NCBI GenBank assembly: GCA_029213025.1
Contig: JARGOZ010000002.1
Span: 8,338-72,337, forward strand
Reading direction: 5' to 3'
DNA: 64,000 bases
Source of the DNA: Verrucomicrobiales bacterium
GTDB taxonomy: Bacteria; Verrucomicrobiota; Verrucomicrobiia; Verrucomicrobiales; DEV007
Each line of letters starts with the position of its first letter. Position 1 is the first letter of the stretch. Positions 2,940-57,715 of this stretch are shown here, piece by piece. A program made the position numbers and the translations under genes. A model generated the notes under the pieces. The model was not told the origin of the DNA. It saw only the letters and a list, made by a program, of their open reading frames with translations, and did not search any database.

Positions 2940-3659
2940 TTACAACTGGGTGACTGGCTGCACGGTTGGCCACATGGTCACCTCTTCGGTCATGATGTGA
3001 GCAGGCTGGGACGCAATTTGCACGACGAGCGTTCCCAGATCCTCCGGAGAAATGCACTTTTCAAGAACCTCCTGCCCTCTCGAGCCTAATCCACAGGAAT
3101 CGGTAAATTCGGTTTGGCCCCAGGATGGAATGACCGATGTGACCTTGACTCCGTGCGGTCTCAGTTCGGTATATAGACATTTCGAAAACTGAAGCAAACC
3201 CGCTTTCGCTGCTGAATAGACACTCCATTCGCCCCAGGCGTGTTTTGCGCAGACGCTGCCTATATTAAAAATGATCCCTGACTTTTCCGGAATCATAACT
3301 TCCGCAGCCCGGCGGCAACCGAGAATGGTACCGGTCAAATTCACCGAAATCGATTCCTGAATCTCCGTGTCGGACTGTTCGGTTAGTGGTGCAATGCGGA
3401 CTCCGGCTCCGGCGTTGTTTACAAGGATATCCAGTTGTCCAACTTCAGAAAAGAGGTTGTCCCAGGCCGTTGCATCAGTTACGTCCGCTGGAAACGGGAT
3501 GGCTCCGGACTGATCGGCTGACTTGCGGAGAGCCTCTTCATTTCGTCCGGTGATCCAGACTTTGGCACCCGCCTCGACCAGGCATTTGGCGATACCGGCA
3601 CCGTAGCCCCGGGAGGCGCCGGTTACGATTGCTGTTTGATTTTTCAGGGTCTGTTCCAT
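2940..3659 (-). CDS. SDR family oxidoreductase
   Basis: 239 aa with TGASRGYGAGIA (TGxxxGxG), NNAG and the YSAAK catalytic motif. The start ATG overlaps the upstream gene's stop (TAATG). Confidence 0.9.
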   Translation of the reverse strand: MEQTLKNQTAIVTGASRGYGAGIAKCLVEAGAKVWITGRNEEALRKSADQSGAIPFPADVTDATAWDNLFSEVGQLDILVNNAGAGVRIAPLTEQSDTEIQESISVNLTGTILGCRRAAEVMIPEKSGIIFNIGSVCAKHAWGEWSVYSAAKAGLLQFSKCLYTELRPHGVKVTSVIPSWGQTEFTDSCGLGSRGQEVLEKCISPEDLGTLVVQIASQPAHIMTEEVTMWPTVQPVTQL

Positions 3660-4969
3660 TATTGAGCTTTGAATGATAAAGGAATTTCTTTACCACCTCT
3701 TTGGACAGTAAGCTCGATTTTATCTCCCGGTTTTGTGGTTTGCAGAATGTGTGCGATCACGCTCCCCTCGGAGGCAGGTCCGGTAAGTCCGGCGATTTCT
3801 TTGATTTTATCGCCGGGTAAGACTCCGGCTTTCCGGGCCACGGCATGGTCTCCGTATTTTCCGGCAGCTTTTACTTCCAGGCCGGTAGCAGTTTTACCGG
3901 ATGACGTGTCCGGTACAAGACTAAGACCGCCAAGTGCCATGCGTCGAAGATCCCAGGTCGAAACCCGCCAGGTGTAGTCGGTGTTTTTCTTCCACCCATT
4001 TTCGAGCACGATGGTGATTTCGCCCTTTTTTCCGGATCGCAACACTTGCAGAGGAATCGAATCACCACCGGCCGGGGTGTGGCGTAGCACCCATTGGAAA
4101 TCGGCTACTGAAATGAGAGGTTGTCCGGCTGCAAAGAGAATTTCATCTCCCGGGCACAGGCCTGCTTTTTCTGCCGGTGAATCATCGTTTATCCGTAGAA
4201 TTGTCGCTCGTTTTTTGGGATCCATTTCGATTCCTGCGACATCGGGCATCGGGTATAGATAGAGAATATCATCGGGAATCGGTTGACCGGCTTCACGGAG
4301 CATTTGGCGCTCTGCGTTGTGGATCTGGTGGCAATGAATGCAGCTTTTGGCTACCTGGTTTTGGTAGTTGATCACAGGGGTATATTTTTGAAGCTGCGGA
4401 TATTTCTCGGCCGTCGGGTATTTCGGTTCCGGACCTGTTTTGGACGCCAGGGAAGCCTGGTTGGCAGGATAGCCCCGGTGCAGAGCGAGAGCCGATTTCA
4501 TGGCTTCCCGCAGTCCTTCCATAGAAATTTGGTCATCTGCATTTTCCGACCTTTCGTTGCGGGTGCCGTATCGACCGTAAACCGTTCCGTCGGCATTCAT
4601 GAAAATTACCCCGAATGACATATCGAAATCGAACTGAAACCGGGCGAGATCGACACCGTTCATCTGAATCATGCGCAGGCAGACGAACTGATCCATCAAG
4701 TCGGAGATCACTCTGTTGTGACGAACAACCTGCTCGTCAAAATCATTACAGGCGTGTCACGGGATACAGCGGAAAACGATCATCATCGGTTTTCCTTTTT
4801 CGCCCGCTTCCAGTTCGGCCAGTTTCAGATCGTTGTAGATCCAGTCCTGATTTTTTTCAAGGTCGTCCCGGTCTGCAATAACCTGTTGGTCGCGACTTTT
4901 CGGAGCGCCTGTTGCAGAAAGGCCGGAGAGCAGAAGTACAGATACTGTGGCAATGGCAAAGGCTTTCAT
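3659..4969 (-). CDS. secreted thioredoxin-like / CxxCH / 2x PDZ protein with an in-frame TGA (candidate selenocysteine in a UxxC motif)
   Basis: ORFs 4757..4969 and 3659..4711 are in the same frame and are separated only by TGA at 4759..4757. The read-through sequence is ...KPMMIVFRCIP-TGA-HACNDFDEQVVRHNRVISDLMDQF... The N-terminal piece has a signal peptide (MKAFAIATVSVLLLSGLSA). The C-terminal piece has no signal peptide and only a GTG start. Downstream are CIHCH and two PDZ-like GLxPGDxI segments. Confidence 0.65.
4720..4738 (-). promoter_or_regulatory. candidate bacterial SECIS-like hairpin downstream of the in-frame UGA
   Basis: The minus-strand RNA GACGAGC-AGGUU-GUUCGUC forms a 7-bp stem (one G-U pair) with a 5-nt loop containing GGU. 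It starts 18 nt after the UGA. Confidence 0.4.
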
Positions 4970-5074: not shown

Positions 5075-6490
5075 ATGGGTTTTATGAAAGCGCGCTTGCT
5101 TGTGTTTTGGATATGGTTAACCGGGTGCGGGGTCGCCCTGGCGGAGCAAAAACCTAACATTCTTTTTCTTTTGGTTGATGACCAAAGGCCCGATACGATT
5201 GGTGCCTACGGAAATGAGGTGATTTCCACGCCCAATCTCGATAAGCTTGCCGAAGGTGGGCTGCGTTTTACCAGGGCAACCTGTTCCTATCCCATTTGTC
5301 ATATCAGCCGGGCGGAAATGTTATCCGGTCGGCACGGGTGGGAAAATGGAATCAACGGGATGGGCGGCAAAGCCTTCCGGAAAGATCTGACATTTTGGGC
5401 GGATGCGTTGAAGGCGGCCGGATATCAAACCTGTTATGTCGGGAAGTGGCACACCCCGGGACGTCCGGCCAGGTATGGGTATGATACTGTAAACGGACTG
5501 TTCGGCAGCGGAGGTGGAAAATGGTGGGAACCGGGACAGACGGACTGGAAAGGTTTCCCGATTACCGGTTACAAAGGTTGGGTGTTTCAGAATGATACCG
5601 GCAAAGAAAAATATCCCGAAAAAGGAGTGGGTCTCACTCCGGACATCGATGCAAAATTCGGTGACGCTGCGATTGACGCGATACGCCGTTTCGAAGGGGA
5701 ACAGCCCTGGTTTGTGCATGTCAATTTCACAGGTCCACACGATCCTTTGTTTATCCCGCCCGGTTACGAAGGCAAGTATAGAAACGAAGATATGCCATTG
5801 CCGGAAAATTTTCTTGCCGAACATCCATTCGATCACGGGAATCTGCGAGGCAGGGACGAAGAGTTGCTGCCGTTTCCGCGAACGCCGGAGGCTGTGCGGG
5901 ATTTGTTGCGGGTATATTATTCAGTGATTGATCACATCGATTTACAGGTTGGTCGAATTGTAGAGGCTTTGAAGGAATCCGGACAGCTAAATAATACTTT
6001 GATTATCTATTCAAGCGATCACGGTATGAGTGTGGGCAGTCACGGATTGAGAGGCAAGCAAAACCAGTATGAACACACGATCAATGTGCCGTTAATTATG
6101 GCCGGCCCCACTGTAAAGAAAGGCATTTCGCCAGCTCAGGTATACTTGCGTGAACTGTATCCCACGACCTGCGAATTGGCGGGCATCCCGGTTCCGGAAT
6201 CGGTAACGGCAAAAAGTTTTGCCGATGTAGTAGCCGGAAAAGCGGATGCCCACCATGACGAGATTTTCGGGTATTTCACCGACTCTCAACGTATGATTCG
6301 GACCGACCAATGGAAATACATTGTCTATCCGCAGGCAGGGAAATCCCAGTTGTTTAATCTGGAAGTGGATCCGTTTGAAAAGGATAATCTTGTCGGCGAA
6401 CCGGCTTTAGCCGAAGTGGTTTCGAATCTGTCGAAGAGGCTGGGTGAATGGAGAAAAACTACCGGAGACCCGTTGCTGACTGAAAATTAG
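5075..6490 (+). CDS. sulfatase (arylsulfatase A family, S1)
   Basis: 471 aa with a signal peptide, LLVDDQRPD metal-binding N-terminus, CHISRAEMLSGR at the formylglycine position, GKWH and SDHG motifs. Confidence 0.9.
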   Translation: MGFMKARLLVFWIWLTGCGVALAEQKPNILFLLVDDQRPDTIGAYGNEVISTPNLDKLAEGGLRFTRATCSYPICHISRAEMLSGRHGWENGINGMGGKAFRKDLTFWADALKAAGYQTCYVGKWHTPGRPARYGYDTVNGLFGSGGGKWWEPGQTDWKGFPITGYKGWVFQNDTGKEKYPEKGVGLTPDIDAKFGDAAIDAIRRFEGEQPWFVHVNFTGPHDPLFIPPGYEGKYRNEDMPLPENFLAEHPFDHGNLRGRDEELLPFPRTPEAVRDLLRVYYSVIDHIDLQVGRIVEALKESGQLNNTLIIYSSDHGMSVGSHGLRGKQNQYEHTINVPLIMAGPTVKKGISPAQVYLRELYPTTCELAGIPVPESVTAKSFADVVAGKADAHHDEIFGYFTDSQRMIRTDQWKYIVYPQAGKSQLFNLEVDPFEKDNLVGEPALAEVVSNLSKRLGEWRKTTGDPLLTEN

Positions 6491-6549
6491 AAGCTGCTGA
6501 CCGGATTAGACACGGTTGCATTCCCTTGTAATCCCGATACGATAAAGTA

Positions 6550-7776
6550 ATGAGAAATTTGTGCCTCCCGTTTTTCCTCCTCCTGGTTACTGCTGCTGTT
6601 AGCACTGCTGAAACGAGAGTTTGGACCAGCTCCGGCGGTAAACAGATCGATGCGACGATACTGGCAGTGGATGGTGATACCGTCAGGTTGGAAACAAGTC
6701 GGGGAAAGTTCGAACTACCTCTTTCGAGACTGTCTGAAGCGGATCAAAACTACGCTAAAAAGTGGGCGAAGAAGAAAGCGGAGATGTCCGCTAAAAAGGA
6801 ACCGGCAAAAAATGTTGCTACTACGCTTGGGGATTTTGACGACCTCACTCTGGGTGAATGGCCCCAGTATGTGGTAGCTGAACTGGAGAATGATCAAATC
6901 GAGATCGTTGAAACAGATGAAGAGGGGACAAAGGGTGAATTTCTCTATCGGACTCCGCATTTCGAGTTTCAGTCCCCGGACCGGCTTTCCAACAGTGTTG
7001 TCCGGGAATTTGCGAGGATTTTTGAAGCTTCTTTTGCTTTTGTTGATCAAATGCCAATCGGTTTAGCTCCCCGCCCAAGTGCCAACGGCTACTTCCAAAC
7101 CAAACTTTATATGACCCGTGAATCCTACTATGAGAATGGTGGTGTCCCGGGGAGTGGGGGGATGTTTTCGTTCCGTTATCGGGGCGAGGAAATGAGTGGA
7201 AAAATCCATGTGCCGCTGCCCAACCTGGGGGTCGAGTATACCGGAACCCGGTATATTGTGGATCATAAGAAGCGCAGTACGACTCTCACTCATGAAATTG
7301 TTCACCAGGTTATGATGCGCTGGCTGGCCACGCCCATGCCGGTGTGGTTGTCGGAAGGTCTCGCGGAAGTTGTTTCTTCGCAGGAATACAACAACGGCAG
7401 GTTTAAACTTAACTCGATGGACCGGGCGATTGTTGATGAGGTCACCAGGGGCAGGAGTCGGGATTTTCATATGCTCAATCTTGAAAGGCTAATGAACATT
7501 ACCAATGCAGAATGGGCAGCCGATTTAACCCGGAACGGATCGAATAACTACAACAGCGCCAGTGTTCTGACCTATTATTTTCTCAAGCTGGAAGGGGCGG
7601 GAGATGGTGCTTTTCTCGTGCATTTTTTACAGGATATCGCCGCCAGCGGACGGGATAGTGAAATCGTAAAAAAAGCGCAGGCCAACCATTTGATCCGGGA
7701 GCGAAGCTACGAAAAACTACAGGAAGATGTAGCTGCTGCGTGGCGAAGTGAGGGGTTGAAGATCGAGTTTCATTAG
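6550..7776 (+). CDS. secreted SHD1-domain protein with a DUF1570-like HExxH domain
   Basis: Signal peptide, then RVWTSSGGKQIDATILAVDGDTVRLETSRGKFELPLSRLSEADQNY (SHD1 pattern). THEIVHQVM follows later in the protein. Confidence 0.75.
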   Translation: MRNLCLPFFLLLVTAAVSTAETRVWTSSGGKQIDATILAVDGDTVRLETSRGKFELPLSRLSEADQNYAKKWAKKKAEMSAKKEPAKNVATTLGDFDDLTLGEWPQYVVAELENDQIEIVETDEEGTKGEFLYRTPHFEFQSPDRLSNSVVREFARIFEASFAFVDQMPIGLAPRPSANGYFQTKLYMTRESYYENGGVPGSGGMFSFRYRGEEMSGKIHVPLPNLGVEYTGTRYIVDHKKRSTTLTHEIVHQVMMRWLATPMPVWLSEGLAEVVSSQEYNNGRFKLNSMDRAIVDEVTRGRSRDFHMLNLERLMNITNAEWAADLTRNGSNNYNSASVLTYYFLKLEGAGDGAFLVHFLQDIAASGRDSEIVKKAQANHLIRERSYEKLQEDVAAAWRSEGLKIEFH

Positions 7777-9167
7777 GCGATTATATCGTGAACTACGTTT
7801 CCGTAGACATCGGTCAGGCGGAAGTCACGCCCTCCGTAGCGATAGGTTAGCTGTTCGTGGTTGAGACCGAGAAGATGTAGTAACGTGGCGTGAAGATCAT
7901 GAAGGTGGACTTTTTCGGACACTGCGGTCTGACCTGTCGGGTCGGTTTGCCCGTAGCGCAGTCCGCATTTTACTCCACCGCCTGCCATCCACATGGTGAA
8001 TCCTGCCGCATTGTGGTCGCGGCCCTTATTTTTGTTGAGAATGGGAGGGCGGCCAAACTCGCCACCCCAAAGCACGAGTGTGTCTTCGAGCAGGCCGCGT
8101 TCTTTCAGATCGGTGAGCAGGGCTGATATCGGTTTATCACTGGCAAACGCCAGCTTTTCGTGGCCCGGGACGAGGTCTTTGTGTTGATCCCAAAACCCGA
8201 GGTTCAACTGAACAAAGCGGACTCCTTTCTCGACAAAGCGCCGAGCCATGAGACAGGCTCTGCCAAAGTTATCAGTGATTTCTGTATTGATACCGTAGCG
8301 ATCGATAATGTATCCCGGCTCCTTCTCTACATCGATTAACCCGGGCATCTCCGCCTGCATACGAAAGGCCGTTTCATAGCTTTGAATGACACCTTCGAGA
8401 GTCTCGTTGATTTGGTCCTGCTTTAGTTTTGCCCGGTTCAGAGTCTGGAGAAGATCGAGTTGGCTGCGCTGTTCCGATTTGCTGATCGTTTCATTGGTTG
8501 TGTAGGGAATCGTGTAGTCTTTTAGAGTTGGTGCTCCCTTTCCGTCTCCGCCGCCCCATTGGTTGATCGGGGTTCCGGCCGTTGACGAAGGCAGAAATGC
8601 ACAACCGTATTTTCGGGCACCGCCGGCGGAAAAATCCGGATTGATGGTAATAAAACCTGGAAGGCTCTGGTTTTCGGTTCCAAGCCCGTAGACAACCCAC
8701 GAACCTACCGAAGGTCTCACAAATTGAAAACTGCCGGTGTTCATTTGCAAAATCGCCTGAGGGTGGTTGGCGATGTCGGTGTGCATGGAATTGATCACAC
8801 ACAGATCGTCGGCATGTTTGGCGGTGTGGTGGAACAGTTCGGATACCGGCAGGCCGCATTCTCCGTAGCGTTTGAATTGCCACGGTGACTGGTAGTATTT
8901 ACGGCCACCTCCGAGATCTTCGTTGTGTCTTTTGGAAAGCTCCGGTTTGAAGTCAAAGGTATCCACTTGTGAAGGTCCTCCGCGCATGAACAGAAAGATG
9001 ACCCGCTTTGCCCTGGCGGAAAAGTGAGGTTGCCGGGGAATCAGAGGGTTTACGCTTTGTTGTTCGGCAAAAAGTCCGGAGAAAGCAAGTGAGCCAAATC
9101 CGCAGGCTGCAGTTTGGAGTGCGCTCCGGCGGGAAAAATTCGGGGTATTGCGGTCAATGTTTTTCAT
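7773..9167 (-). CDS. DUF1501 domain protein (sulfatase-fold, Tat signal)
   Basis: Tat-like RRSALQTAACGFGSLAF, plus FMRGGPSQVDTFDFKP and the C-terminal DLHATLLHLLGLNHEQLTYRYGGRDFRLTDVYG typical of DUF1501. I chose ATG 9167 because it overlaps the upstream stop (TAATG), rather than the longer ORF start at 9224. Confidence 0.9.
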   Translation of the reverse strand: MKNIDRNTPNFSRRSALQTAACGFGSLAFSGLFAEQQSVNPLIPRQPHFSARAKRVIFLFMRGGPSQVDTFDFKPELSKRHNEDLGGGRKYYQSPWQFKRYGECGLPVSELFHHTAKHADDLCVINSMHTDIANHPQAILQMNTGSFQFVRPSVGSWVVYGLGTENQSLPGFITINPDFSAGGARKYGCAFLPSSTAGTPINQWGGGDGKGAPTLKDYTIPYTTNETISKSEQRSQLDLLQTLNRAKLKQDQINETLEGVIQSYETAFRMQAEMPGLIDVEKEPGYIIDRYGINTEITDNFGRACLMARRFVEKGVRFVQLNLGFWDQHKDLVPGHEKLAFASDKPISALLTDLKERGLLEDTLVLWGGEFGRPPILNKNKGRDHNAAGFTMWMAGGGVKCGLRYGQTDPTGQTAVSEKVHLHDLHATLLHLLGLNHEQLTYRYGGRDFRLTDVYGNVVHDIIA

Positions 9168-11707
9168 TAGTATACCGTTCGAAATTCGGAGGTTGCCATA
9201 AGGGAATGAATGGCGCGGGCCCACGAATCTCTATTGTTTCCCGATCGAGATAAAAATTCTTTTATGGCTGAAACCTCTTCCGATGTCGGCTGACGGGTGA
9301 GCAGACGGTAATAGATTTCATCTATATATTTATCGGTATCGGCCTGATCCGTGATCCAATTTGCTATATTTTCAGCCTGTTCGATAACGAGTGGGCTGTT
9401 CATCAGGAATAGAGCTTGAGCAGGGACGGTTGTGTTTTTCCTGGCTCCGACGACAAGGTTCGGGTCGGGAGCATCGAAAAGTTTCATCGAATCAAATATG
9501 GCTCCGCGCGCCGATGGTAGGTAGACGCTTCGACAGGTTACATCCGTTTTCACATCTTTATTGTAGTAGTCCCTCCTGCCAATTTCCCGTTGTTGAATTT
9601 TCTCCATTTGGTTGGCGATTGCTTCGACCTGGGAAGTTTGCGGTCGGCTCCGGTCGAGGCTGCCGCCGACAAAAAGCAGGCAGTCGCGCAGCACTTCACC
9701 CTCAATGCGCTGCGGGGAAAATCGCCACAGTAAGCGGTTGGCCGGGTCGAATTCGTATTGCGAAGGATCCTGCGTGGAGGCGAGCATCCAGGTTCTGCTC
9801 AACACGAGATGTCGAATCAGTTTTTTTACCGACCAGCCTTCCTGCATAAATCTCACCGCTAAATCATCGAGTAGTTCAGGATGACTTGGTTTTGACCCGA
9901 GCAAACCGAAGTTATCCACCGTGTCTACAAGACCGCTGCCGAACAGGTGGTGCCAGATGCGGTTAACCATGACGCGGGCGGTGGCGGGATTCTTTTCATC
10001 GGCGAGCCAGTTGGCCAGCTGGAGGCGTCCACTCTGGTGTTCATCGATTACCGGGAACTTCAGAAATTTATCAAACAGTGACAGGGTTCCCCGCGGAACG
10101 ATTTTCCCGGGACTTTTGTGATCGCCCCGCACAAATACCGGGGAATCGTGAATGCGCGGGGTGGTTGGTTTCTTTTCCTTTTTGTTACTCTGGAAAAGTT
10201 CCGCCCACTGTTCCCGGCTCATTACTACCGCTTCGGCCATAGCCATAGCATAGACGGGTGGAGCCGGTATAGCTGCCTTTGCCGACTTCACCTTAGCCTG
10301 AAAAGCCTGAACTACAGATTCGGCTGCCTTCAATTCCGGGGTTGGATTTTTCTTCCAGTCGAGGCCCTGTTTTTCCAGTGGTTCCCGGATCAAGTTGCGT
10401 TTCTTTACCAGTTCAAGATACTCCTTTTGAACTTTTTCGGCATGGGTTATCGCTGCCTCACGACGTTTCAGGAGTTGCTCTTTTTCGTCTCCGAGCGGGA
10501 AGGCGTCCTGGTGCTCAAAACGAACATTGGTGGCAACTCCGGCCAGATTTCTCGAGCTGCGAAAAATGCCTGCGAGAGCGTAATAATCCTGAGCCGGTAT
10601 CGGATCATATTTGTGATCGTGACAGCGGGAACAGTTTGCAGTGAGCGCGAGAAAAGCCCGACACGTCGCATCGATTTGATCATCCGCTACATTCAGTTCG
10701 AAGAGGAGCGGATCGGCTTCATTCAGGGTTTTCGGACCGATGGTAAGAAAACCGGTCGCTATAGTTTGGTGATCTCTTTGCTTCGGAGAGTCAGCCGGGA
10801 GCAGGTCTCCGGCAATTTGCTGGCGCACAAAACGGTTATAGGGTAAATCAGCATTCAGGGCATCGATCACCCAGTCCCGGTACCTCCAGGCGTAGGGATA
10901 TAACATATTTCGAGAGTAACTGCTCGATTCCGCATAGCGCGCCACATCGAGCCAGTGTCTGCCCCAGCGTTCGCCAAAACCGGGGTCGGCGAGAAGTCGA
11001 TCGACTACTTTCGCAAAGGCGGTTCGGGTATCTGCGGGATCGTTGCAAAATTCGTCGGTTTCCTGCCTGGTTGGAAGCAGTCCGGTTAGTTCGATAGTCG
11101 CTCTTCGAATCAATGTGTAGCGGTCGGCGTCTTCTACCGGTTTCATAAGATTCTCTTCAAGTTTCGAAAGAACAAAATAGTCCAGCCGGTCCCGGGGCCA
11201 GGTTGTGTCTTTGACGTTAGGGAGATCCGGTTTTCTGACCTGTTGAAAGGCCCAGTGGGATTCGGCTTCGATTTCGCGCGGCAATTTCGAAATTCCGTTG
11301 CGGGGATCAGGCGCGCCGAGCGCGACCCATTTTTCGAAATCCGAGATGACAGAATCCGGCAGCTTTTTCTTCGGCATTTTCAGGTCGTCGCGAACGTGTC
11401 GAATCGCTTCGATCAGCTGGCTGCCGTTGATATCTCCCGGTATCAAGGCATCCCGCCCGGATTTGCCGCCTTTGCGAATACCGTCGCGGGTATCGAGGAG
11501 GTAATCCGCTTTGATTTCGCCCGAAGCGGAAGAGTGGCATTCGTAACAGTGAGTCACCAGAACCGGCCGAATTTTCGATTCAAAAAATTCGAGAGCAGCC
11601 TTGTCTTGCGTGACTGAAGCTGTGCCTATCCCTGCAATGAGGAGTATGGACAGTAAACGGCTCACGTGGTTAAGGTATCCGCAAGACAGCGTAGCAAAAA
11701 CCCGCAA
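9167..11707 (-). CDS. PSCyt1/PSCyt2/PSD1 protein (planctomycete cytochrome c + DUF1549 + DUF1553)
   Basis: 846 aa with CYECH near the N-terminus, GERWGRHWLDVARYAES and CSRCHDHKYDP. It has the canonical pairing with a downstream DUF1501 gene. Confidence 0.9.
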   Translation of the reverse strand: MRVFATLSCGYLNHVSRLLSILLIAGIGTASVTQDKAALEFFESKIRPVLVTHCYECHSSASGEIKADYLLDTRDGIRKGGKSGRDALIPGDINGSQLIEAIRHVRDDLKMPKKKLPDSVISDFEKWVALGAPDPRNGISKLPREIEAESHWAFQQVRKPDLPNVKDTTWPRDRLDYFVLSKLEENLMKPVEDADRYTLIRRATIELTGLLPTRQETDEFCNDPADTRTAFAKVVDRLLADPGFGERWGRHWLDVARYAESSSYSRNMLYPYAWRYRDWVIDALNADLPYNRFVRQQIAGDLLPADSPKQRDHQTIATGFLTIGPKTLNEADPLLFELNVADDQIDATCRAFLALTANCSRCHDHKYDPIPAQDYYALAGIFRSSRNLAGVATNVRFEHQDAFPLGDEKEQLLKRREAAITHAEKVQKEYLELVKKRNLIREPLEKQGLDWKKNPTPELKAAESVVQAFQAKVKSAKAAIPAPPVYAMAMAEAVVMSREQWAELFQSNKKEKKPTTPRIHDSPVFVRGDHKSPGKIVPRGTLSLFDKFLKFPVIDEHQSGRLQLANWLADEKNPATARVMVNRIWHHLFGSGLVDTVDNFGLLGSKPSHPELLDDLAVRFMQEGWSVKKLIRHLVLSRTWMLASTQDPSQYEFDPANRLLWRFSPQRIEGEVLRDCLLFVGGSLDRSRPQTSQVEAIANQMEKIQQREIGRRDYYNKDVKTDVTCRSVYLPSARGAIFDSMKLFDAPDPNLVVGARKNTTVPAQALFLMNSPLVIEQAENIANWITDQADTDKYIDEIYYRLLTRQPTSEEVSAIKEFLSRSGNNRDSWARAIHSLMATSEFRTVY

Positions 11708-31725: not shown

Positions 31726-32265
31726 ATGAAGAAGTCTGATTCGGCGAAAGATGATCGTCGGGAATTTTTAGAAAAAGCCGGTTCGATTTGTGCCGGTTGT
31801 GCAATGCTCGGTGTTCCGGCCGCGGCAGGTATTGCAGTGGTTCTCGATCCGTTGCGTCTGCCTCCCAAGGATGCGGAATTCATCGATGTGACAACTCTCG
31901 ATTCTCTGCCGCCCGACGGGACTCCGCAGAAATATGTGATCAAAGCAGACAAACAGGATGCCTGGTCGCGTTTTCCGGATCGCGTGATCGGTGCGGTTTA
32001 TCTTCGCCGGCTCAAAAACGATACCATTCAGGCCTTTAACGTGGTGTGCCCCCACCTGGGATGCGCCATTGAATACCGGGATGTCGAAAAAGACTATTTT
32101 TGTCCCTGTCACAACAGCGATTTTGCGCTGGAAGACGGGGCTCAGGGCAGGGGCAGTCCCAGTGCCCGACCGCTGGACAGTTTGGAGACCAAAGTGGAGG
32201 AAGGCCAGGTCTGGGTGAAGTTTCAAAACTTCCAAACAGGAATCGCAGAGAAAAAGCCGGCGTAA
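31726..32265 (+). CDS. Rieske 2Fe-2S subunit of a cytochrome bc-type complex (Tat signal)
   Basis: RREFLEKAGSICAGCAMLG Tat-like leader, plus CPHLGC and CPCHNS cluster-binding boxes. Confidence 0.9.
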   Translation: MKKSDSAKDDRREFLEKAGSICAGCAMLGVPAAAGIAVVLDPLRLPPKDAEFIDVTTLDSLPPDGTPQKYVIKADKQDAWSRFPDRVIGAVYLRRLKNDTIQAFNVVCPHLGCAIEYRDVEKDYFCPCHNSDFALEDGAQGRGSPSARPLDSLETKVEEGQVWVKFQNFQTGIAEKKPA

Positions 32266-34139
32266 TGTTTACTGTAAAAAGCCTGCTCAAAGACTGGGTT
32301 TCCAGTCGGTCGATGAAGAGTACCTTCGACTGGTTGGATGACCGGACCGGATACCGGGGATTGCTGAAGGAAGTGTTATTTGAATCCGTTCCCGGCGGTG
32401 CCCGTTGGCGGTATGTGTGGGGCTCGACTTTGACCTTCGGGTTGATGGTGCAGATCATCACCGGACTTGTGCTGTGGGCGGCGTATTCTCCCAGTTCGCA
32501 AACCGCCTGGGAAAGCGTCTTTTATATCCAGCATGAAATGACGGGAGGATGGCTCCTGCGGGGGATTCATCACTACACCGCTCAGGTCATGACCATTCTG
32601 CTGGTATTGCACATGGGGCAGGTCCTGATCGATGGCGCCTACAAAGCCCCGCGGGAGGTGAACTTCTGGACCGGTCTGATCCTGCTGCTTTTAATCCTTT
32701 CGATTTCGTTAACCGGTTATCTTCTCCCCTGGGACCAGAAAGGTTACTGGGCTACCAAAGTGGCGACAAATCTGGCCGGAGTAGTGCCGGTATTCGGTGA
32801 GCATATTCAGCGGGTGATTGTAGGTGGTCCGGATTACGGTCACCATACTCTGACCCGGTTCTTTGCCCTTCATGCCGGTGTGCTTCCGGTCCTGGTTATG
32901 ATGGTGATTGTCGGGCATATCTACCTGTTTCGGAAACACGGAATTACCCCGGCTCATCCGGGAAAAAAGAAACGCCGGGACGGCTGGTTCTGGCCCGATC
33001 AGATTTTCCGGGATGCTGTCGCCTGCCTTGCGGTGATGATGGTCGTGTTGATTCTCACACTCCGGCATCATGGGGCTGAGTTGACGGCTCCTTCAAATCC
33101 GGCTGAGCGTTTCCCTGCCAGGCCGGACTGGTATTTCATGTTTCTGTTTGAGTTTCTGAAATATTTCCCCGGAAAGAGTTTGATCATCGGAGGGTTAATT
33201 CTCCCGGCTCTCGCTGTGGTCGGATTTTTTGCGATGCCGATTGTGGCTTCAAAGTGGCCGTGGGGGCACAAAGCGAATTTGATTTATTCAGGCGGCTTTC
33301 TTTTCATCTTCGCCACACTCACGGCGATGGCATTCAATCATGATGCGAAAGATAAGGAGTATCAGTTCGCGAAGAAAATTGCGCAACGGGATGCCGCCCG
33401 GGTGATGGAACTCGCTCAGTCTCCGGAGGGGATTCCGCCGATTGGAGCCGTGGAGCTGCTGCAGAATGATCCCTACACTCAGGGGCCCCGGATTTTCGCT
33501 TCGAAATGCGCCAGTTGTCATACGTACATGGGGCACGACGGAATGGGGAAACCTCAGAATGAACCCTCCGCTCCGGATCTGTACCGGTTTGGTTCCCGGC
33601 AATGGCTGGCGGGATTTGTGGATCCCGATCAGATTGAAACGATTAAATACTTTCACGGAACGGCCTTTGTCGAGCCCGATGAAAACGGCAAAAAGTCGCG
33701 AATGGTGAGATTTGTGAAAGATCTGGAGAATTTGTCGGAAGAAGGGAAGGCGCAGCTTTCGAAGATTGTCGCTGCTGTTTCGGCTCAGGCTGATTTGAGT
33801 TACCAGGAGGAAATGGACGCGAAGGATGCGGCATTGATTCAGGAGGGTACCGATCTGTTCTTTGAAGGAATCGAAGGGGTGGATGCGACATGTGCGGACT
33901 GCCACGGATTCGATGGCGAGGAAAGTGAAGCCTCATTTACGCCAGATTTGAACGGTTGGGCCTCCCGCCAATGGACGATTGATTTCACGAAGAACCCTTC
34001 CCACCCGAAATTTTACGGAAAAAACAATGACCGGATGCCGGTATTCGAAGAGGAAAAGATTTTCACTGATAAACAAATCGAGATGGTAGTCGATTGGCTG
34101 CGTGAAGATTGGGTGAGGTTTGCGTCGGGCGACAATTGA
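32265..34139 (+). CDS. cytochrome b (b6 + subunit IV-like) fused to a C-terminal diheme c-type cytochrome
   Basis: His pairs in GIHHYTAQVMTILLVLH and FFALHAGVLPVLVMMVIVGH, a PDWYFMFLFEFLK (PEWY-like) motif, then CASCH and CADCH. ATG 32265 overlaps the Rieske stop (TAATG); the ORF-track start at 32100 is an overlap artefact. Confidence 0.88.
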   Translation: MFTVKSLLKDWVSSRSMKSTFDWLDDRTGYRGLLKEVLFESVPGGARWRYVWGSTLTFGLMVQIITGLVLWAAYSPSSQTAWESVFYIQHEMTGGWLLRGIHHYTAQVMTILLVLHMGQVLIDGAYKAPREVNFWTGLILLLLILSISLTGYLLPWDQKGYWATKVATNLAGVVPVFGEHIQRVIVGGPDYGHHTLTRFFALHAGVLPVLVMMVIVGHIYLFRKHGITPAHPGKKKRRDGWFWPDQIFRDAVACLAVMMVVLILTLRHHGAELTAPSNPAERFPARPDWYFMFLFEFLKYFPGKSLIIGGLILPALAVVGFFAMPIVASKWPWGHKANLIYSGGFLFIFATLTAMAFNHDAKDKEYQFAKKIAQRDAARVMELAQSPEGIPPIGAVELLQNDPYTQGPRIFASKCASCHTYMGHDGMGKPQNEPSAPDLYRFGSRQWLAGFVDPDQIETIKYFHGTAFVEPDENGKKSRMVRFVKDLENLSEEGKAQLSKIVAAVSAQADLSYQEEMDAKDAALIQEGTDLFFEGIEGVDATCADCHGFDGEESEASFTPDLNGWASRQWTIDFTKNPSHPKFYGKNNDRMPVFEEEKIFTDKQIEMVVDWLREDWVRFASGDN

Positions 34140-39382: not shown

Positions 39383-39489
39383 GGTAAAACGGTAGGGGTG
39401 CCGGTCCGGGTGTCAATGCGCCCAATAGTGCTCGTTGGCGAAACGGTTTCCGGGTTGCAAAGCGGGTGGGAACGTGGCAATGGCTTCCT

Positions 39490-39909
39490 ATGTCGAAGGA
39501 AATTGAAGAGGGACTCGAAGTGAAACTCGATTTCACGAAACTCAAGAAGGTGGCGGATACCGGCTCCAACGTTGTCCCCGCTGTGGCTCAGGACGTTGAT
39601 ACCGGTGAGGTTCTGATCATCGGTTATGCCAATGAGTTGGCTCTGAAAACGGCTCTCGAAGAGAAGATGGCAACTTTCTGGAGCACAAGTCGCAATGAGT
39701 TGTGGATCAAAGGAAAAACCTCCGGCGATTTTCTCGAGCTGGTGGAAGCCCGGGTGAACTGCGAGCAGAATTCTCTCCTTTACCGGGTGCGCCTGGCGGG
39801 GGCCGGTTCCTGCCACACCAAAGGGAAAGACGGAAAAGCACGCCTCGGCTGTTACTACCGCCGCATCAACGAAGACGGCAGTCTCTCGTTTGTCGAAAAC
39901 ATGGAATAA
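39490..39909 (+). CDS. hisI: phosphoribosyl-AMP cyclohydrolase
   Basis: VPAVAQDVDTGEVLIIGYANELALKTALEEKMATFWSTSRNELWIKGKTSGDFLELVEARVNCEQNSLLYRV...CHT matches the HisI core. Confidence 0.9.
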   Translation: MSKEIEEGLEVKLDFTKLKKVADTGSNVVPAVAQDVDTGEVLIIGYANELALKTALEEKMATFWSTSRNELWIKGKTSGDFLELVEARVNCEQNSLLYRVRLAGAGSCHTKGKDGKARLGCYYRRINEDGSLSFVENME

Positions 39910-39911
39910 TC

Positions 39912-40124
39912 ATGGATCGGGATAAAGCTATCGAAGAAATCGAGGGTTCGTGCAGAATCATTGCCCTCGAAATGATGAAACTCACTCCAAAAGCAAAGTT
40001 TCTGGAGAATGAAGAAATCGCAGGGGAAGTGATGAAAGCATCCTACGAGTTGACCATTCAGCTGGAGATCATCAAGAAAAAGCTGATCCAGCTGAAGGGC
40101 CGGGATGATTCCGGGGAACTGTAA
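39912..40124 (+). CDS. small hypothetical helical protein (70 aa)
   Basis: ATG lies 2 nt after the hisI stop. The frame is open to 40124 and I recognise no motif. It is embedded in the longer ORF-track entry 39702..40124. Confidence 0.35.
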   Translation: MDRDKAIEEIEGSCRIIALEMMKLTPKAKFLENEEIAGEVMKASYELTIQLEIIKKKLIQLKGRDDSGEL

Positions 40125-40133
40125 AAGCCGGGG

Positions 40134-48659: not shown

Positions 48660-50663
48660 TTGAATTACATGGATAACCCCGATTCAAACCCGGAAAATCC
48701 CCCGCCTTCGAGCGGACTTTGGTCATCCGGGTCGACGCAGAATTGGAAGCCCCCTTCCATAGAAGAATTATCCCGGCTTCTGTCCGGTTTCGAGGTTGCC
48801 GGGATTATCGGCAAAGGAGGAATGGGAGTGGTTTACCGGGGCATCCAGAAGAGTCTTGGTCGTCAGGTCGCAATCAAACTGCTGCCACCGGAACTGGGCA
48901 AAGACCCGGAATTCAAAGAACGGTTTCGCAGGGAGGCGAAAGCGATGGCTCTGCTAAACCATGCAAATATCGTAGGTATTCACGATTTTGGAGAAACGGA
49001 GAGCGGTCATGTCTATTTCGTGATGGAATACATAGATGGTTGCGATCTCCATCATTACCTCCGGAGCGGCCACCTGGATACCAACGGGGCTATGAATATT
49101 ATGGTTCAAGTGTGCGATGCTCTCGGCTATGCCCATGGAAAAGGAATTGTTCACCGGGACATCAAACCGGGGAATGTTTTTTTAACTTCCGATGGAATTG
49201 TCAAGGTCGGTGATTTTGGATTGGCAAAACTCCTCCGCCCCGAAATGGCCGACGCGGACTATTCTGAATTGCTGAATCTAACCCTGACAGGGGTGGCGAT
49301 GGGCACGCCAAGCTATATGGCTCCGGAGCAACTTGAGCAGGGAGAAACGATTGATCATCGGGCCGACCTTTTCAGTCTCGGTGTTATGTTCTATGAAATA
49401 TTGACCGGAAACCTTCCTCAGGGAGCGGTTCGTTCTCCCTCTGAAATCAGCCGGTTGAAACCTGATGAACGCCTCGACCGGATTGTCTTTCGTTCCATGG
49501 AAAGTGAACGCGAGCACCGCTACCAAAATGCGACCGAATTTCGAGAAGCAATTTGCGAAGTACAGAGCCAACCGGTTCGCCAGGAATCTATACCTGAAGA
49601 GAAGCCGAATCCGTCTCTAAAAGTTCCCCTGCTCATTGGCGGAACAATGTTCTGCCTGATCACGGCAGGACTGCTCCTTCTGTATTTCAAATCGCTGCCC
49701 ATTGCAATCGCTGAGGTCGCGGTAATTCCTGCAGCGAATCCTGAAAAAGGTGAACTGGTGATTAGTGGAACGAACCGGGGCGCTCCTGCAGTAATTCCCG
49801 AGGAGTGGAAAGGAAAGAAATTTGATTGGATTCGCCCTAATCATCGAGGTGGTATCTTTGCCGGGAGCGGAGATCTGGGTATTCAGTTTTTTTCTAAAAA
49901 GGAACTTCGCGGCGTACAGAAGAGTTACTGTTTAAAGAGATCTAATATTTTGGCTTGGAACGGAACGATGCTAACTACCGATAACGAGTTGCGGTGGAAG
50001 TACCAGGGTCAGGCCAATGGTACAATTTCTGATGTAGTTGACTTCAGCGGCGGTGGTGGAGCCGCTGACGACACCGTTAGTACTTTGGTCGCACTAACGA
50101 AGACCGGCAAGCTCGAACTGCTGGTACCAGACAGTGAGATGAAATGGGATTTCGAAACCTGGTCGAAGAATAGAAAGTTTCGTGAGGTGGAAATGTCGAT
50201 TTACTATGGATTGGCGATGGCGATCTTCGCCGTAACCGATTCAGGCGAACTGATTGCATTTAACCGGAACGGAATCGTTGAGCTTCCCTCTGCGATTACA
50301 TCCGGTGTAGTTGATATAGAAACGGGAGAAACTACCCGGGGCCGAATTGCTGTAGTAAAAGAGAATGGAGACGTTATCGAATTTACTTCAGGAATGGTCA
50401 AAGAACTTGGAGCTGATCGATATCAAAAACACTGGGAAAGAACCCCGCCGGAATTTTTCGGCACAAAAAAACCGGTGCGATTTTTTTATGGTGGACACGG
50501 AAGGACAATTCAGTTCGAGGATGGTTCGTGGGCGGCCTGGACGGGATACTTGATGTTCGAAAAGCAGGTGTTTCAGGAAGTCACCGATAAAGGTTCCTTT
50601 TCGTCTCTCAGAATTCTGAGCAATCCGAAGTTCGATTGCCTGTTCATTATCGGGATTCGCTAA
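48660..50663 (+). CDS. Ser/Thr protein kinase with one TM and an extracytoplasmic beta-propeller-like domain
   Basis: GKGGMGVVYRG, AIK, HRDIKPGNVF, DFGLAK and GTPSYMAPE. TM segment VPLLIGGTMFCLITAGLLLLYF. The C-terminal ~290 aa is paralogous to the C-termini of the next two genes. The start is TTG 48660 or ATG 48669. Confidence 0.9.
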   Translation: MNYMDNPDSNPENPPPSSGLWSSGSTQNWKPPSIEELSRLLSGFEVAGIIGKGGMGVVYRGIQKSLGRQVAIKLLPPELGKDPEFKERFRREAKAMALLNHANIVGIHDFGETESGHVYFVMEYIDGCDLHHYLRSGHLDTNGAMNIMVQVCDALGYAHGKGIVHRDIKPGNVFLTSDGIVKVGDFGLAKLLRPEMADADYSELLNLTLTGVAMGTPSYMAPEQLEQGETIDHRADLFSLGVMFYEILTGNLPQGAVRSPSEISRLKPDERLDRIVFRSMESEREHRYQNATEFREAICEVQSQPVRQESIPEEKPNPSLKVPLLIGGTMFCLITAGLLLLYFKSLPIAIAEVAVIPAANPEKGELVISGTNRGAPAVIPEEWKGKKFDWIRPNHRGGIFAGSGDLGIQFFSKKELRGVQKSYCLKRSNILAWNGTMLTTDNELRWKYQGQANGTISDVVDFSGGGGAADDTVSTLVALTKTGKLELLVPDSEMKWDFETWSKNRKFREVEMSIYYGLAMAIFAVTDSGELIAFNRNGIVELPSAITSGVVDIETGETTRGRIAVVKENGDVIEFTSGMVKELGADRYQKHWERTPPEFFGTKKPVRFFYGGHGRTIQFEDGSWAAWTGYLMFEKQVFQEVTDKGSFSSLRILSNPKFDCLFIIGIR

Positions 50664-52381: not shown

Positions 52382-52416
52382 ATTTGCAGTATCCTGGAGT
52401 TCGACTACAGATTTTT

Positions 52417-54378
52417 ATGCCCACTTCCCAACCGGAATCGTCATTCCCAGAATGGAACCAGCCGACACCCGAAGAACTGACCCAGCTTTTAGAGGGGTTT
52501 GAGATCCATGAGTTGATCGGTCTCGGCGGAATGGGCGCTGTTTATCGGGGACTGCAGAAAAGCCTCAACCGGACCGTGGCGATTAAACTGCTTCCGCCGG
52601 AGATCGGTAACCACGAAGACTTTCGAAAAAGGTTTCGCCGCGAAGCCAGGGCGATGGCGATGCTGCAACATCCCAATATCGTAGTCATTCACGACTTTGG
52701 TGTTACGCCGGCAGGTCACTCCTATTTCGTAATGGAATACATCGACGGATGTGATCTGCGGGAATACGCCAAAAACGGACACCTCGACGGGAACGGTGCG
52801 CTGAATGCCATCTGCCAGATTTGTGATGCCCTTTCCTATGCGCATTCCAAAGGTGTGGTTCATCGGGATATCAAACCAGCCAATGTGTTTCTCAATTCCG
52901 ATGGTGTAGTAAAAGTCGGCGACTTCGGCCTCGCTAAACTTGTAGTGGAGAAGCCGGGCACCCAGGCAGGCCAAACCCAAACGGGAATCCTGATGGGGAC
53001 ACCGAACTATGTGGCACCCGAACAAATAACCGGCGAACTACCTGTGGATCACCGTGCCGACTTATACAGCTTAGGAGTGATGTTTTATGAAATGCTGACC
53101 GGCAAGCTTCCACGCGGCTCGGTACGGCCTCCTTCCCAGATCGGTTCTTTCGAGGAACCACTGGATCCAAGGGTTGATCATATTGTTTTCCGGGCAATGG
53201 AGATTCAACGTGATCACCGCTATCAAGACGCCGGCGAACTGCGAAGAGATATCGATTCGATGAGGAGTCAGCCAATCCGAAACCTATCGGATACCACCGA
53301 AAAGAAGAAACCCTCAAGCGCCCTGATTATCTGGATCATTGGAATCGTCGCAATTGCGGTTCCCGCCTTCGTTTTTATCATCTGGAAAACATCATCGGGC
53401 CCGAAACAACATTTTACCGTGCGAAATCCGATTGGAAACCTTTTACCACTGCCCACCGGTCATCTTGTTTTCAAAGGGGAATTCGCCGGCAAAGCAGTGT
53501 CGATCCCTGAATACATGAAAAACGTTAAGTTTGACTGGGTTTTGGAAAATGGCCCGGTTGGTCCCATTGCGCACAGTCCCCAATTGGGTGTTTTGCGCTA
53601 CGAAAAAGATGGATGGCATTCCCTCGTCGAGGAAAAGGTCAAAATGTTAGCCTATCCGGGTTCCGTTTGGGAAGGAACATCACTCAACGGTTCAAACGAA
53701 TTGAAATGGTATCATAAGAACGGGAAACACGGGAAATTTTCACAGGTCACAAAAGTCGGCTATGGAGGCGGGACTTACCGGGGTGGCGGCAGGGATGATG
53801 GAAGCCTGCTGGCCTTAACCGAAAATGGAGATATAGAATTGATCGTCTTCGGGACAACTATGGATTGGGAGTATAAAGAATGGATTCAAAGCATGAGGTG
53901 GAAAGATATGGCAATCGCATCACACCTTGGTATAGAGAACGGCGCACTGCTGCTTTCCCAAAGCGGTGAAGTTCGAGGTTTTAACCATAAAGGACTGATT
54001 GAATTACCCGAAGCAATAACCCGCCATGTTGCATCCATCCATTCCGGGAACGATGGCATCAATTTTGCCGTAATTAAAGAGAATGGCGAAATTTTTCGAT
54101 TCTCGGAGGGCCAGGGAAATTTTCGCCCGGGAAGTCTGGCCCGGAGCTGGAGCAAAATCCCGGATGAATATTTTGATGATCGAACGCCTGTGTTCATCGA
54201 ATGTTGCGCCTCGGGTGATGCCATTCAATTGGAAGATGGCTTCTGGATCATTCTACCCGGGAAAGGCCGACCCAGCTCTCCGGTGTTTCAAGATCTTATC
54301 TCGGAGTCACCCTTCAAAACACTCAGGTATCTCGAGAACGCCAGCCGAAATCACCGCTATGTAATTGGCGTCCGGTAA
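52417..54378 (+). CDS. Ser/Thr protein kinase with one TM and an extracytoplasmic beta-propeller-like domain (second copy)
   Basis: GLGGMGAVYRG, AIK, HRDIKPANVF, DFGLAK and GTPNYVAPE. TM segment ALIIWIIGIVAIAVPAFVFIIW. C-terminal domain as in the two preceding genes. ATG 52417 is preferred over TTG 52384 by N-terminal alignment with the first kinase. Confidence 0.9.
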   Translation: MPTSQPESSFPEWNQPTPEELTQLLEGFEIHELIGLGGMGAVYRGLQKSLNRTVAIKLLPPEIGNHEDFRKRFRREARAMAMLQHPNIVVIHDFGVTPAGHSYFVMEYIDGCDLREYAKNGHLDGNGALNAICQICDALSYAHSKGVVHRDIKPANVFLNSDGVVKVGDFGLAKLVVEKPGTQAGQTQTGILMGTPNYVAPEQITGELPVDHRADLYSLGVMFYEMLTGKLPRGSVRPPSQIGSFEEPLDPRVDHIVFRAMEIQRDHRYQDAGELRRDIDSMRSQPIRNLSDTTEKKKPSSALIIWIIGIVAIAVPAFVFIIWKTSSGPKQHFTVRNPIGNLLPLPTGHLVFKGEFAGKAVSIPEYMKNVKFDWVLENGPVGPIAHSPQLGVLRYEKDGWHSLVEEKVKMLAYPGSVWEGTSLNGSNELKWYHKNGKHGKFSQVTKVGYGGGTYRGGGRDDGSLLALTENGDIELIVFGTTMDWEYKEWIQSMRWKDMAIASHLGIENGALLLSQSGEVRGFNHKGLIELPEAITRHVASIHSGNDGINFAVIKENGEIFRFSEGQGNFRPGSLARSWSKIPDEYFDDRTPVFIECCASGDAIQLEDGFWIILPGKGRPSSPVFQDLISESPFKTLRYLENASRNHRYVIGVR

Positions 54379-57161: not shown

Positions 57162-57521
57162 ATGAACACCGAAAACAGCCAAAATCCTGAAGCCAATCAA
57201 GAAGTTCGAATCGTGTTGGTGACGTTCCCTAATCTTGAAACTGCGCGTCAAATTGGCACACTTTTAGTGGAGTCGCAACTGGTTGCGTGTGTGAATTTGC
57301 TCCCCGGCGTAGAGTCGATCTACCGGTGGGAAGGCGCCGTAACTACAGATACCGAGGTGGCCGGTTTCCTGAAAACATCGACCCGGCGACTGGCGCAGTT
57401 GGAAGAAACTTTTCTCCGGGAACACCCTTACGACGTACCGGAATTCCTTGTGTTAAAGCCGGAATCAGGTTTCGGCGGATATCTCGACTGGGTGAAACAA
57501 TCGTGCGAAAAAACTAATTAA
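57162..57521 (+). CDS. cutA: divalent-cation tolerance protein CutA
   Basis: VLVTFPNLETARQIGTLLVESQLVACVNLLPGVESIYRWEG...HPYDVPEFLVL is the typical CutA1 signature. Confidence 0.9.
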   Translation: MNTENSQNPEANQEVRIVLVTFPNLETARQIGTLLVESQLVACVNLLPGVESIYRWEGAVTTDTEVAGFLKTSTRRLAQLEETFLREHPYDVPEFLVLKPESGFGGYLDWVKQSCEKTN

Positions 57522-57715
57522 GAAATATTTATTGTTATAATTTCCAAATATTTTATATTTGTGAAACGTATAAGGATAGGACATAAGTATATCCGACGAA
57601 AAAACACCGTAATTTTAGATCATTAGAAATTTCGGAAATATTAATTAGACAAACGCCACAATATCATTACAGGTTTCTTTACTACGTTAATCCTTTGATT
57701 TTGTAGTGCACGAAA

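Follow-up and report, generated by a model that had tools for sequence, protein, structure and literature searches.

A predicted Trx7/PDZ selenoprotein gene in a Verrucomicrobiales contig, with an in-frame TGA at the first redox position of its thioredoxin-like domain and a conserved hairpin downstream

A selenoprotein family named "putative secreted serine protease MucD" was described from Global Ocean Sampling (GOS) reads, with a CxxU motif, two selenocysteine (Sec) forms, 12 Cys homologues and a predicted bacterial selenocysteine insertion sequence (bSECIS) element (Zhang and Gladyshev, 2008; PMC2398784). In a later review table, the same position is taken by a "PDZ domain-containing protein, pfam13899, CxxU" (PMC9312934), and a thioredoxin-7 (Trx7)/PDZ family is given as a selenoprotein in a further paper (PMC13188914). 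From the order of the tables, we infer that the MucD family of 2008 is the one that later received the pfam13899 and NF041199 names. The 2008 paper and the reviews treat the family as a computational prediction. Here a member is described from a 64,000-nt stretch of a Verrucomicrobiales bacterium (GenBank assembly GCA_029213025.1, contig JARGOZ010000002.1, positions 8,338 to 72,337 of the forward strand), which was analysed as a whole and is called the window below. The gene lies on the minus strand and is interrupted by one in-frame TGA. Sequence comparisons make it very probable that this TGA truly encodes selenocysteine, in a thioredoxin (Trx)-like/PDZ protein with a signal peptide.

Profile searches were run on the protein read through the TGA, with U replaced by C. 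The NCBIfam equivalog model NF041199, "Trx7/PDZ domain-containing (seleno)protein", was matched at 378.8 bits against a cutoff of 300 (E = 2.7e-113), residues 43-434 aligning with profile positions 2-389 of 390. The score over the cutoff, the order of the domains (Thioredoxin_7 and then PDZ) and Sec or Cys at the active-site column all agree with membership. The signal peptide, the Thioredoxin_7 domain, a CxHCH linker, two PDZ domains, the Sec/Cys column and a SECIS directly downstream are shared with the family. No essential difference from it was seen; the reviews write the motif as CxxU, whereas alignment in the register of AGR2 (see below) gives UxxC. The find is ordinary because the family was described in 2008 and has already been curated; the NCBI pipeline model would annotate the window gene, a routine member, automatically. 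A selenium-utilisation paper (ISME J, 2016), whose main text mentions neither Verrucomicrobia nor Planctomycetes, was not used as evidence.

The gene appears in the window as two minus-strand open reading frames (ORFs), one at 4757..4969 with an ATG start (70 aa) and one at 3659..4711 with a GTG start (350 aa). Their starts are 258 nt apart (4969-4711), which is 3x86, so both ORFs are in one frame, and the TGA is the sole stop between them. Translation of 4969..3659 yields 436 codons followed by TAA, and the context of the TGA is ...KPMMIVFRCIP-*-HACNDFDEQVVRHNRV... or, more widely, ...GKPMMIVFRCIP-*-HACNDFDEQVVRHNRVISDL... An earlier note on this DNA, made from the sequence without database searches, had described two same-frame ORFs split by TGA alone and a read-through product MMIVFRCIP-U-HAC-NDFDEQVV; the frame arithmetic and the translation bear out both statements. 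The note had also expected that gene callers would split such a gene, and this is what is found among its relatives: at the closely related locus L081 it is called as two proteins of 77 and 346 aa, and the closest database relatives are truncated (334-346 aa). Coordinates of the features are collected in Table 1.

Table 1. Features of the predicted selenoprotein gene, in window coordinates.
Feature	Position	Strand	Basis or remarks
Complete predicted selenoprotein gene	3659..4969	minus	ATG at 4969, Sec-UGA at codon 70, TAA 3661..3659, 436 aa
Signal peptide, about residues 1-22 (MKAFAIATVSVLLLSGLSATGA)	4904..4969	minus	Read from sequence; cleavage site approximate
Thioredoxin_7 domain, residues 43-125, across the TGA	4595..4843	minus	Pfam PF13899, 36.1 bits against a cutoff of 27
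Redox motif C67-I-P-U70-H-A-C73 (CxxUxxC)	4751..4771	minus	Conserved in homologues; U70/C73 in the thioredoxin CxxC register
In-frame TGA, predicted selenocysteine codon U70	4757..4759	minus	TGA/Cys-codon column in orthologues; metagenome contigs
Bacterial SECIS-type hairpin GACGAGC-AGGUU-GUUCGUC, encoding D-E-Q-V-V-R	4720..4738	minus	Fold and conservation; extendable to 4719..4739
GTG that a gene caller would choose as start of the downstream piece	4709..4711	minus	Internal Val codon on the read-through reading; orthologues align continuously over it
C210-I-H-C-H-Q215 motif (CXXCH signature) in the Trx-PDZ1 linker of roughly 70 aa	4325..4342	minus	Invariant alignment columns
PDZ domain 1, residues 250-320	4010..4222	minus	Pfam PDZ_2, E = 2.8e-17
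PDZ domain 2, about residues 345-434	3668..3937	minus	Second PDZ_2 stretch; GspC-PDZ match 349-433; secondary structure of the orthologue model; boundaries approximate

Relatives were searched for among about 5.8 billion proteins. Those at 53-72% identity were all 312-356 aa long and covered only the last 72-82% of the query; those at 42-48% identity were full-length (419-457 aa) with Thioredoxin_7 included, and several of them bear the name Trx7/PDZ (seleno)protein. Where the window reads FRCIP-TGA-HAC, the full-length homologues have VVFRCIP-C-xAC. A scan of one genome per species gave 80 loci, and the codon was compared in 76 orthologues and the window gene. TGA stands at the aligned position in 27 of these 77 (26 loci and the window) and TGC or TGT in the other 50, so that Cys is found where the earlier note had proposed looking for it. 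The TGA forms came mostly from Verrucomicrobiota metagenome-assembled genomes (Verrucomicrobiales, Limisphaerales and one Kiritimatiellia), with one labelled Omnitrophota and two Planctomycetota; the Cys forms were mostly from Planctomycetota. The top locus of the genome collection was 62% identical to the window protein, so this collection does not contain the source species, which is likely a marine member of the Verrucomicrobiales. L081 is closer (68% identical), shares the TGA, and its hairpin is identical. Exactly one in-frame stop is present in each of the 28 TGA-bearing genes (the window gene, the 26 loci and L081). Upstream of this stop are 66-76 codons, counted from a signal-peptide-like start, and downstream of it 362-374 codons are intact; in eight of the 28, the first ATG of the open frame is further upstream, by up to 185 codons.

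The earlier note had placed a hairpin with a 7-bp stem 18 nt after the UGA, and folding confirmed it at exactly that place. Seven base pairs close the loop AGGUU, or nine close GGU in the minimum free energy (MFE) fold, and the MFE lies between -8.7 and -11.0 kcal/mol. A published bSECIS model specifies a loop of 3-9 nt, an (upper) stem of 4-16 bp, a UGA-to-loop distance of 16-37 nt, an MFE of -7.5 kcal/mol or lower and a G within the first two loop positions, typically as N-G-[G/U]-N-N (PMC13188914). The window hairpin agrees with this model at every point (loop AGGUU or GGU, 8-9 bp, spacing of 25-26 nt, MFE of -8.7 kcal/mol or lower). Like the fdhF-type SECIS of Escherichia coli, it lies in coding sequence just 3' of the UGA and presents G-G/U in a small apical loop, at a spacing inside the 16-37 nt consensus; its sequence is unrelated to the fdhF type, and SelB binding is here a prediction.

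Covariation was assessed on the ungapped 60 nt from the UGA in the 27 TGA forms, with stem columns 22-28 set against columns 34-40. In this register, 96.7% of the pair cells were paired, compared with 20-61% when the 3' arm was slid by 1-3 columns. Compensatory changes, which the earlier note had suggested looking for in orthologues that retain the TGA, were found at two stem pairs (six distinct sequences have G-C in place of A-U, and one has C-G in place of G-C), and one-sided changes from G-U to A-U or G-C were also seen. Sec forms made 6.8 of the 7 pairs on average; the mean of the 50 Cys forms was 2.4, and none of them exceeded 5. The peptide encoded over the hairpin is D-E/G-Q-V/L-V-R in Sec forms and variable in Cys forms, where D-D-D-V-A-R and D-D-D-L-V-x are common; as judged from these alignments, the constraint on the RNA shows in the protein sequence. 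Three TGA forms (from Omnitrophota, Verrucomicrobiota and Kiritimatiellia) have the two bottom pairs broken and five pairs left, with GUUCGCGG in place of GUUCGUC about 36-41 nt after the UGA. RNAalifold suggests compensation in these three by another lower stem, formed by columns 20-22 and 42-44.

The TGA was also read in contigs of two independent marine metagenome runs, at word depths of about 6 and 22. One of these contigs represents a variant strain, with D146N, A32E and one synonymous change, in which the TGA is retained. The Logan contigs of one run break at 4714..4723, just 3' of the hairpin and partly within its 3' arm, and the other run gives a single continuous contig across these positions; strain variation or low depth probably broke the assembly graph there.

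The upstream piece of the read-through protein begins with what reads as a typical signal peptide, and domain analysis placed PDZ domains in the downstream piece, as the earlier note had described; the N-termini of orthologues are similarly hydrophobic. The Thioredoxin_7 domain crosses the TGA at codon 70, and the whole Trx domain is thus contained in neither piece. C67, U/C70 and C73 are all conserved in position among full-length homologues. In phmmer searches of solved structures, the best relatives of the Trx domain were AGR2 (E = 0.0085) and ERp18/TXNDC12, and in the AGR2 alignment the CPHS motif has its Cys opposite U70 and its Ser opposite C73. Geometry was examined in the AlphaFold model of a Cys-form orthologue (P0025) that is 47% identical to the window protein (pLDDT 93, pTM 0.89). 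In this model a strand (59-64) is followed by C65-I-P-C68-E-A-C71 and a helix (72-79), so that C68, the counterpart of U70, lies four residues past the strand, a strand-loop-helix layout that, in the model, fits the usual geometry of a Trx active site. Given the alignment of U70 with the AGR2 Cys and this geometry, the earlier placement of U at the first redox-Cys position is right. U would then hold the N-terminal nucleophilic position of the canonical CxxC register, as sequence and model both indicate. The full motif is CxxUxxC; the "CxxU" label of the literature denotes C-I-P-U, which is also present.

Compared with AGR2 (CPHS), ERp18/TXNDC12 and the C-terminal domain of DsbD, the window protein has the same Thioredoxin_7-type fold, with the active site after beta-1 at the N-terminus of the first helix. 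It differs from them in having Sec for the first Cys, an extra Cys three residues upstream and a fusion to the CxHCH linker and two PDZ domains, and the sequence similarity is remote. A Foldseek search with the orthologue model showed that the C-terminal half resembles the tandem PDZ domains of DegQ, DegP and RseP (E = 3e-11 to 1e-7). All of the top 50 matches were HtrA-family proteases or other PDZ proteins and were uninformative on the linker. The PDZ1-PDZ2 tandem is thus alike in fold to those of the HtrA proteases (DegP, DegQ, MucD) and RseP, but the window protein has no trypsin-like protease domain: none was found in the read-through protein with Pfam, and TIGR02037 reached 52 bits against a cutoff of 416, over the PDZ region only. 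Because of this DegP/DegQ/RseP-like tandem, several databases name homologues "serine protease Do"; such protease names are misannotations.

Several results weigh against reading the TGA as selenocysteine. The 76-nt fold is no better than that of shuffled sequence (z = -0.42), and 44 of the 2250 TGA trinucleotides in the window (about 2%) precede a hairpin that agrees equally with the bSECIS values used above. No Rfam family matches the hairpin, either in a scan of the whole window at the gathering threshold or in a permissive scan of 4600..4850 (the scans returned snoRNA and miRNA matches only, which were judged to be chance). Bacterial SECIS elements are very diverse, and the Rfam blank is therefore unsurprising. 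No selA, selB, selD or tRNA-Sec lies within the 64-kb window: ARAGORN found no tRNA there or near the 26 TGA-form loci, and a Pfam scan of the 40 largest window ORFs gave no SelA, SelB or SelD domain. Nor was any report found in which a family member had been shown to incorporate selenium or to act as an enzyme. Since the hairpin is weak evidence when taken alone, the case is carried by the comparative data, namely TGA or a Cys codon in the same column and the hairpin in TGA forms only.

The same data were used to weigh other explanations of the TGA. A nonsense mutation that inactivated a former Cys-type Trx7/PDZ gene would also leave a single in-frame TGA splitting a gene that is intact in more distant homologues. 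However, the TGA occupies the same codon in 28 genes at 40-72% protein identity, with no other stop or frameshift, there is conservation on both sides of it, the hairpin co-occurs with TGA only, and the variant strain keeps the TGA. One stop with intact flanks in all 28 rules out pseudogene decay, which the earlier note had named as a possible outcome. On these comparisons, the pseudogene explanation is extremely improbable and is effectively refuted by conservation. The note had also considered two genuinely separate genes, which would here be a 70-aa secreted peptide and a 350-aa cytoplasmic PDZ protein started from the GTG at 4711. Gene-caller output has just this form, as do the truncated closest relatives and the split call at L081, but Thioredoxin_7 and NF041199 both run across the TGA, the 50 orthologues with Cys at the codon each encode one uninterrupted protein, and the starts of the truncated calls differ between relatives and lie inside the Trx fold. 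Hardly any credence is left for separate genes.

An error of sequencing or assembly, with TGC or TGT as the true codon, would require a change of one base, and nothing specific speaks for it. Its probability is negligible, as the TGA that re-sequencing might have replaced was seen in both metagenome assemblies, one of them differing at three other sites, and in 27 further independent orthologue assemblies. Read-through of the UGA free of selenium would give a Cys or Trp protein or a mixture, by near-cognate insertion of Trp or Cys, by Cys-tRNA(Sec) or following loss of selD. The search for Sec machinery, which covered the window, leaves room for it, but it is very unlikely in view of the covarying SelB-type hairpin, the curation of the family as a selenoprotein and the use of TGA as an ordinary stop elsewhere in the window. 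TGA terminates eight of the 29 Pfam-supported genes there and is thus not a general sense codon in this organism. The selenocysteine reading, and with it the single 436-aa selenoprotein proposed in the earlier note, is supported by the NF041199 match, the Sec/Cys pairing, the intact frames and the conserved hairpin.

Under the selenocysteine reading, the UGA at codon 70 would be decoded as Sec during translation. By analogy with the established SelB/SECIS mechanism, the hairpin would recruit SelB-GTP carrying Sec-tRNA(Sec). The signal peptide would direct export of the protein. In the Thioredoxin_7 active site, C-I-P-U-H-A-C, Sec would replace the nucleophilic Cys at the N-terminal position. 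Next come a short linker domain, which has the invariant CxHCH, and the DegP/RseP-like PDZ tandem, which has no protease domain and may hold peptide or protein clients. The protein is thus most likely a periplasmic selenol/thiol-disulfide oxidoreductase with PDZ domains for its clients. At most 10 of 78 loci share any one gene family within 5 kb, and a conserved operon partner that would hint at function is therefore lacking. The importance of the gene hardly goes beyond correct annotation. Gene callers split it, its closest relatives stand in databases under the names "PDZ" or "serine protease Do" with their N-termini missing, and reading the UGA as Sec would restore a secreted Trx-fold enzyme. 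Three small points are added here to the literature that was found: a family-specific SECIS consensus with covariation, the distribution of Sec forms (mostly Verrucomicrobiota) versus Cys forms (mostly Planctomycetota), and evidence for U at the nucleophilic position of CxxUxxC.

The linker motif S-C-x-H-C-H-Q was invariant in homologue alignments of 24 and 74 sequences, in Sec and Cys forms alike, and no mention of it was found in descriptions of the family in the literature. When isolated linkers were compared with Pfam, the sole domain reached was Paired_CXXCH_1, in one of four sequences at 15.1 bits, below its cutoff of 20.6. Together with the unusual CxxUxxC triad, the motif may serve as a second redox CxxC or as a Zn site. 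It also agrees with the CXXCH signature for attachment of haem c. A haem-c site is a more adventurous proposal, and a rather unlikely one; the protein would then be a periplasmic haem and selenocysteine redox protein that passes electrons between a c-type haem and a selenenylsulfide centre. To our knowledge, a combination of haem c and selenocysteine of that kind has not been described. The invariant CxHCH motif offers an inexpensive experimental lead on the function of the family.

The window was also scanned for further selenoproteins. Besides this gene, 31 read-through ORF candidates were obtained, none with a Sec-type redox motif. Two of them were examined and rejected, the grounds being overlap with a Pfam-supported gene on the opposite strand or mere extension past a natural stop. 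An intergenic motif scan of the window gave no credible further selenoprotein gene.

A sulfatase gene (5075..6490) is divergent from the selenoprotein gene. Beyond it lie a DUF1501 gene (7773..9224) and, as its partner, a PSCyt1/DUF1549/DUF1553 gene (9167..11707); a neighbourhood such as 5075..11707 is usual in the Verrucomicrobiota/Planctomycetota group. At several orthologous loci, though inconsistently, genes of the DUF1501, PSCyt and sulfatase types were seen within 10 kb. Sulfatases are often near these loci, and such genomes appear to be sulfatase-rich. Further along the window, two intervals, 39383..40133 (750 nt) and 57197..57715 (519 nt), contained no ORF of at least 150 aa and no Rfam match at the gathering threshold. 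Two paralogous Ser/Thr protein kinase genes of about 665 aa each (48660..50663 and 52384..54378, plus strand) flank a 538-aa ORF that has no Pfam match. At 31726..34139 on the plus strand, a Rieske ORF is followed by an ORF in which cytochrome b carries a cytochrome c domain as a C-terminal fusion. From its listed TTG start at 32100, the cytochrome b/c ORF would share about 165 nt with the Rieske ORF; its true start probably lies further downstream.

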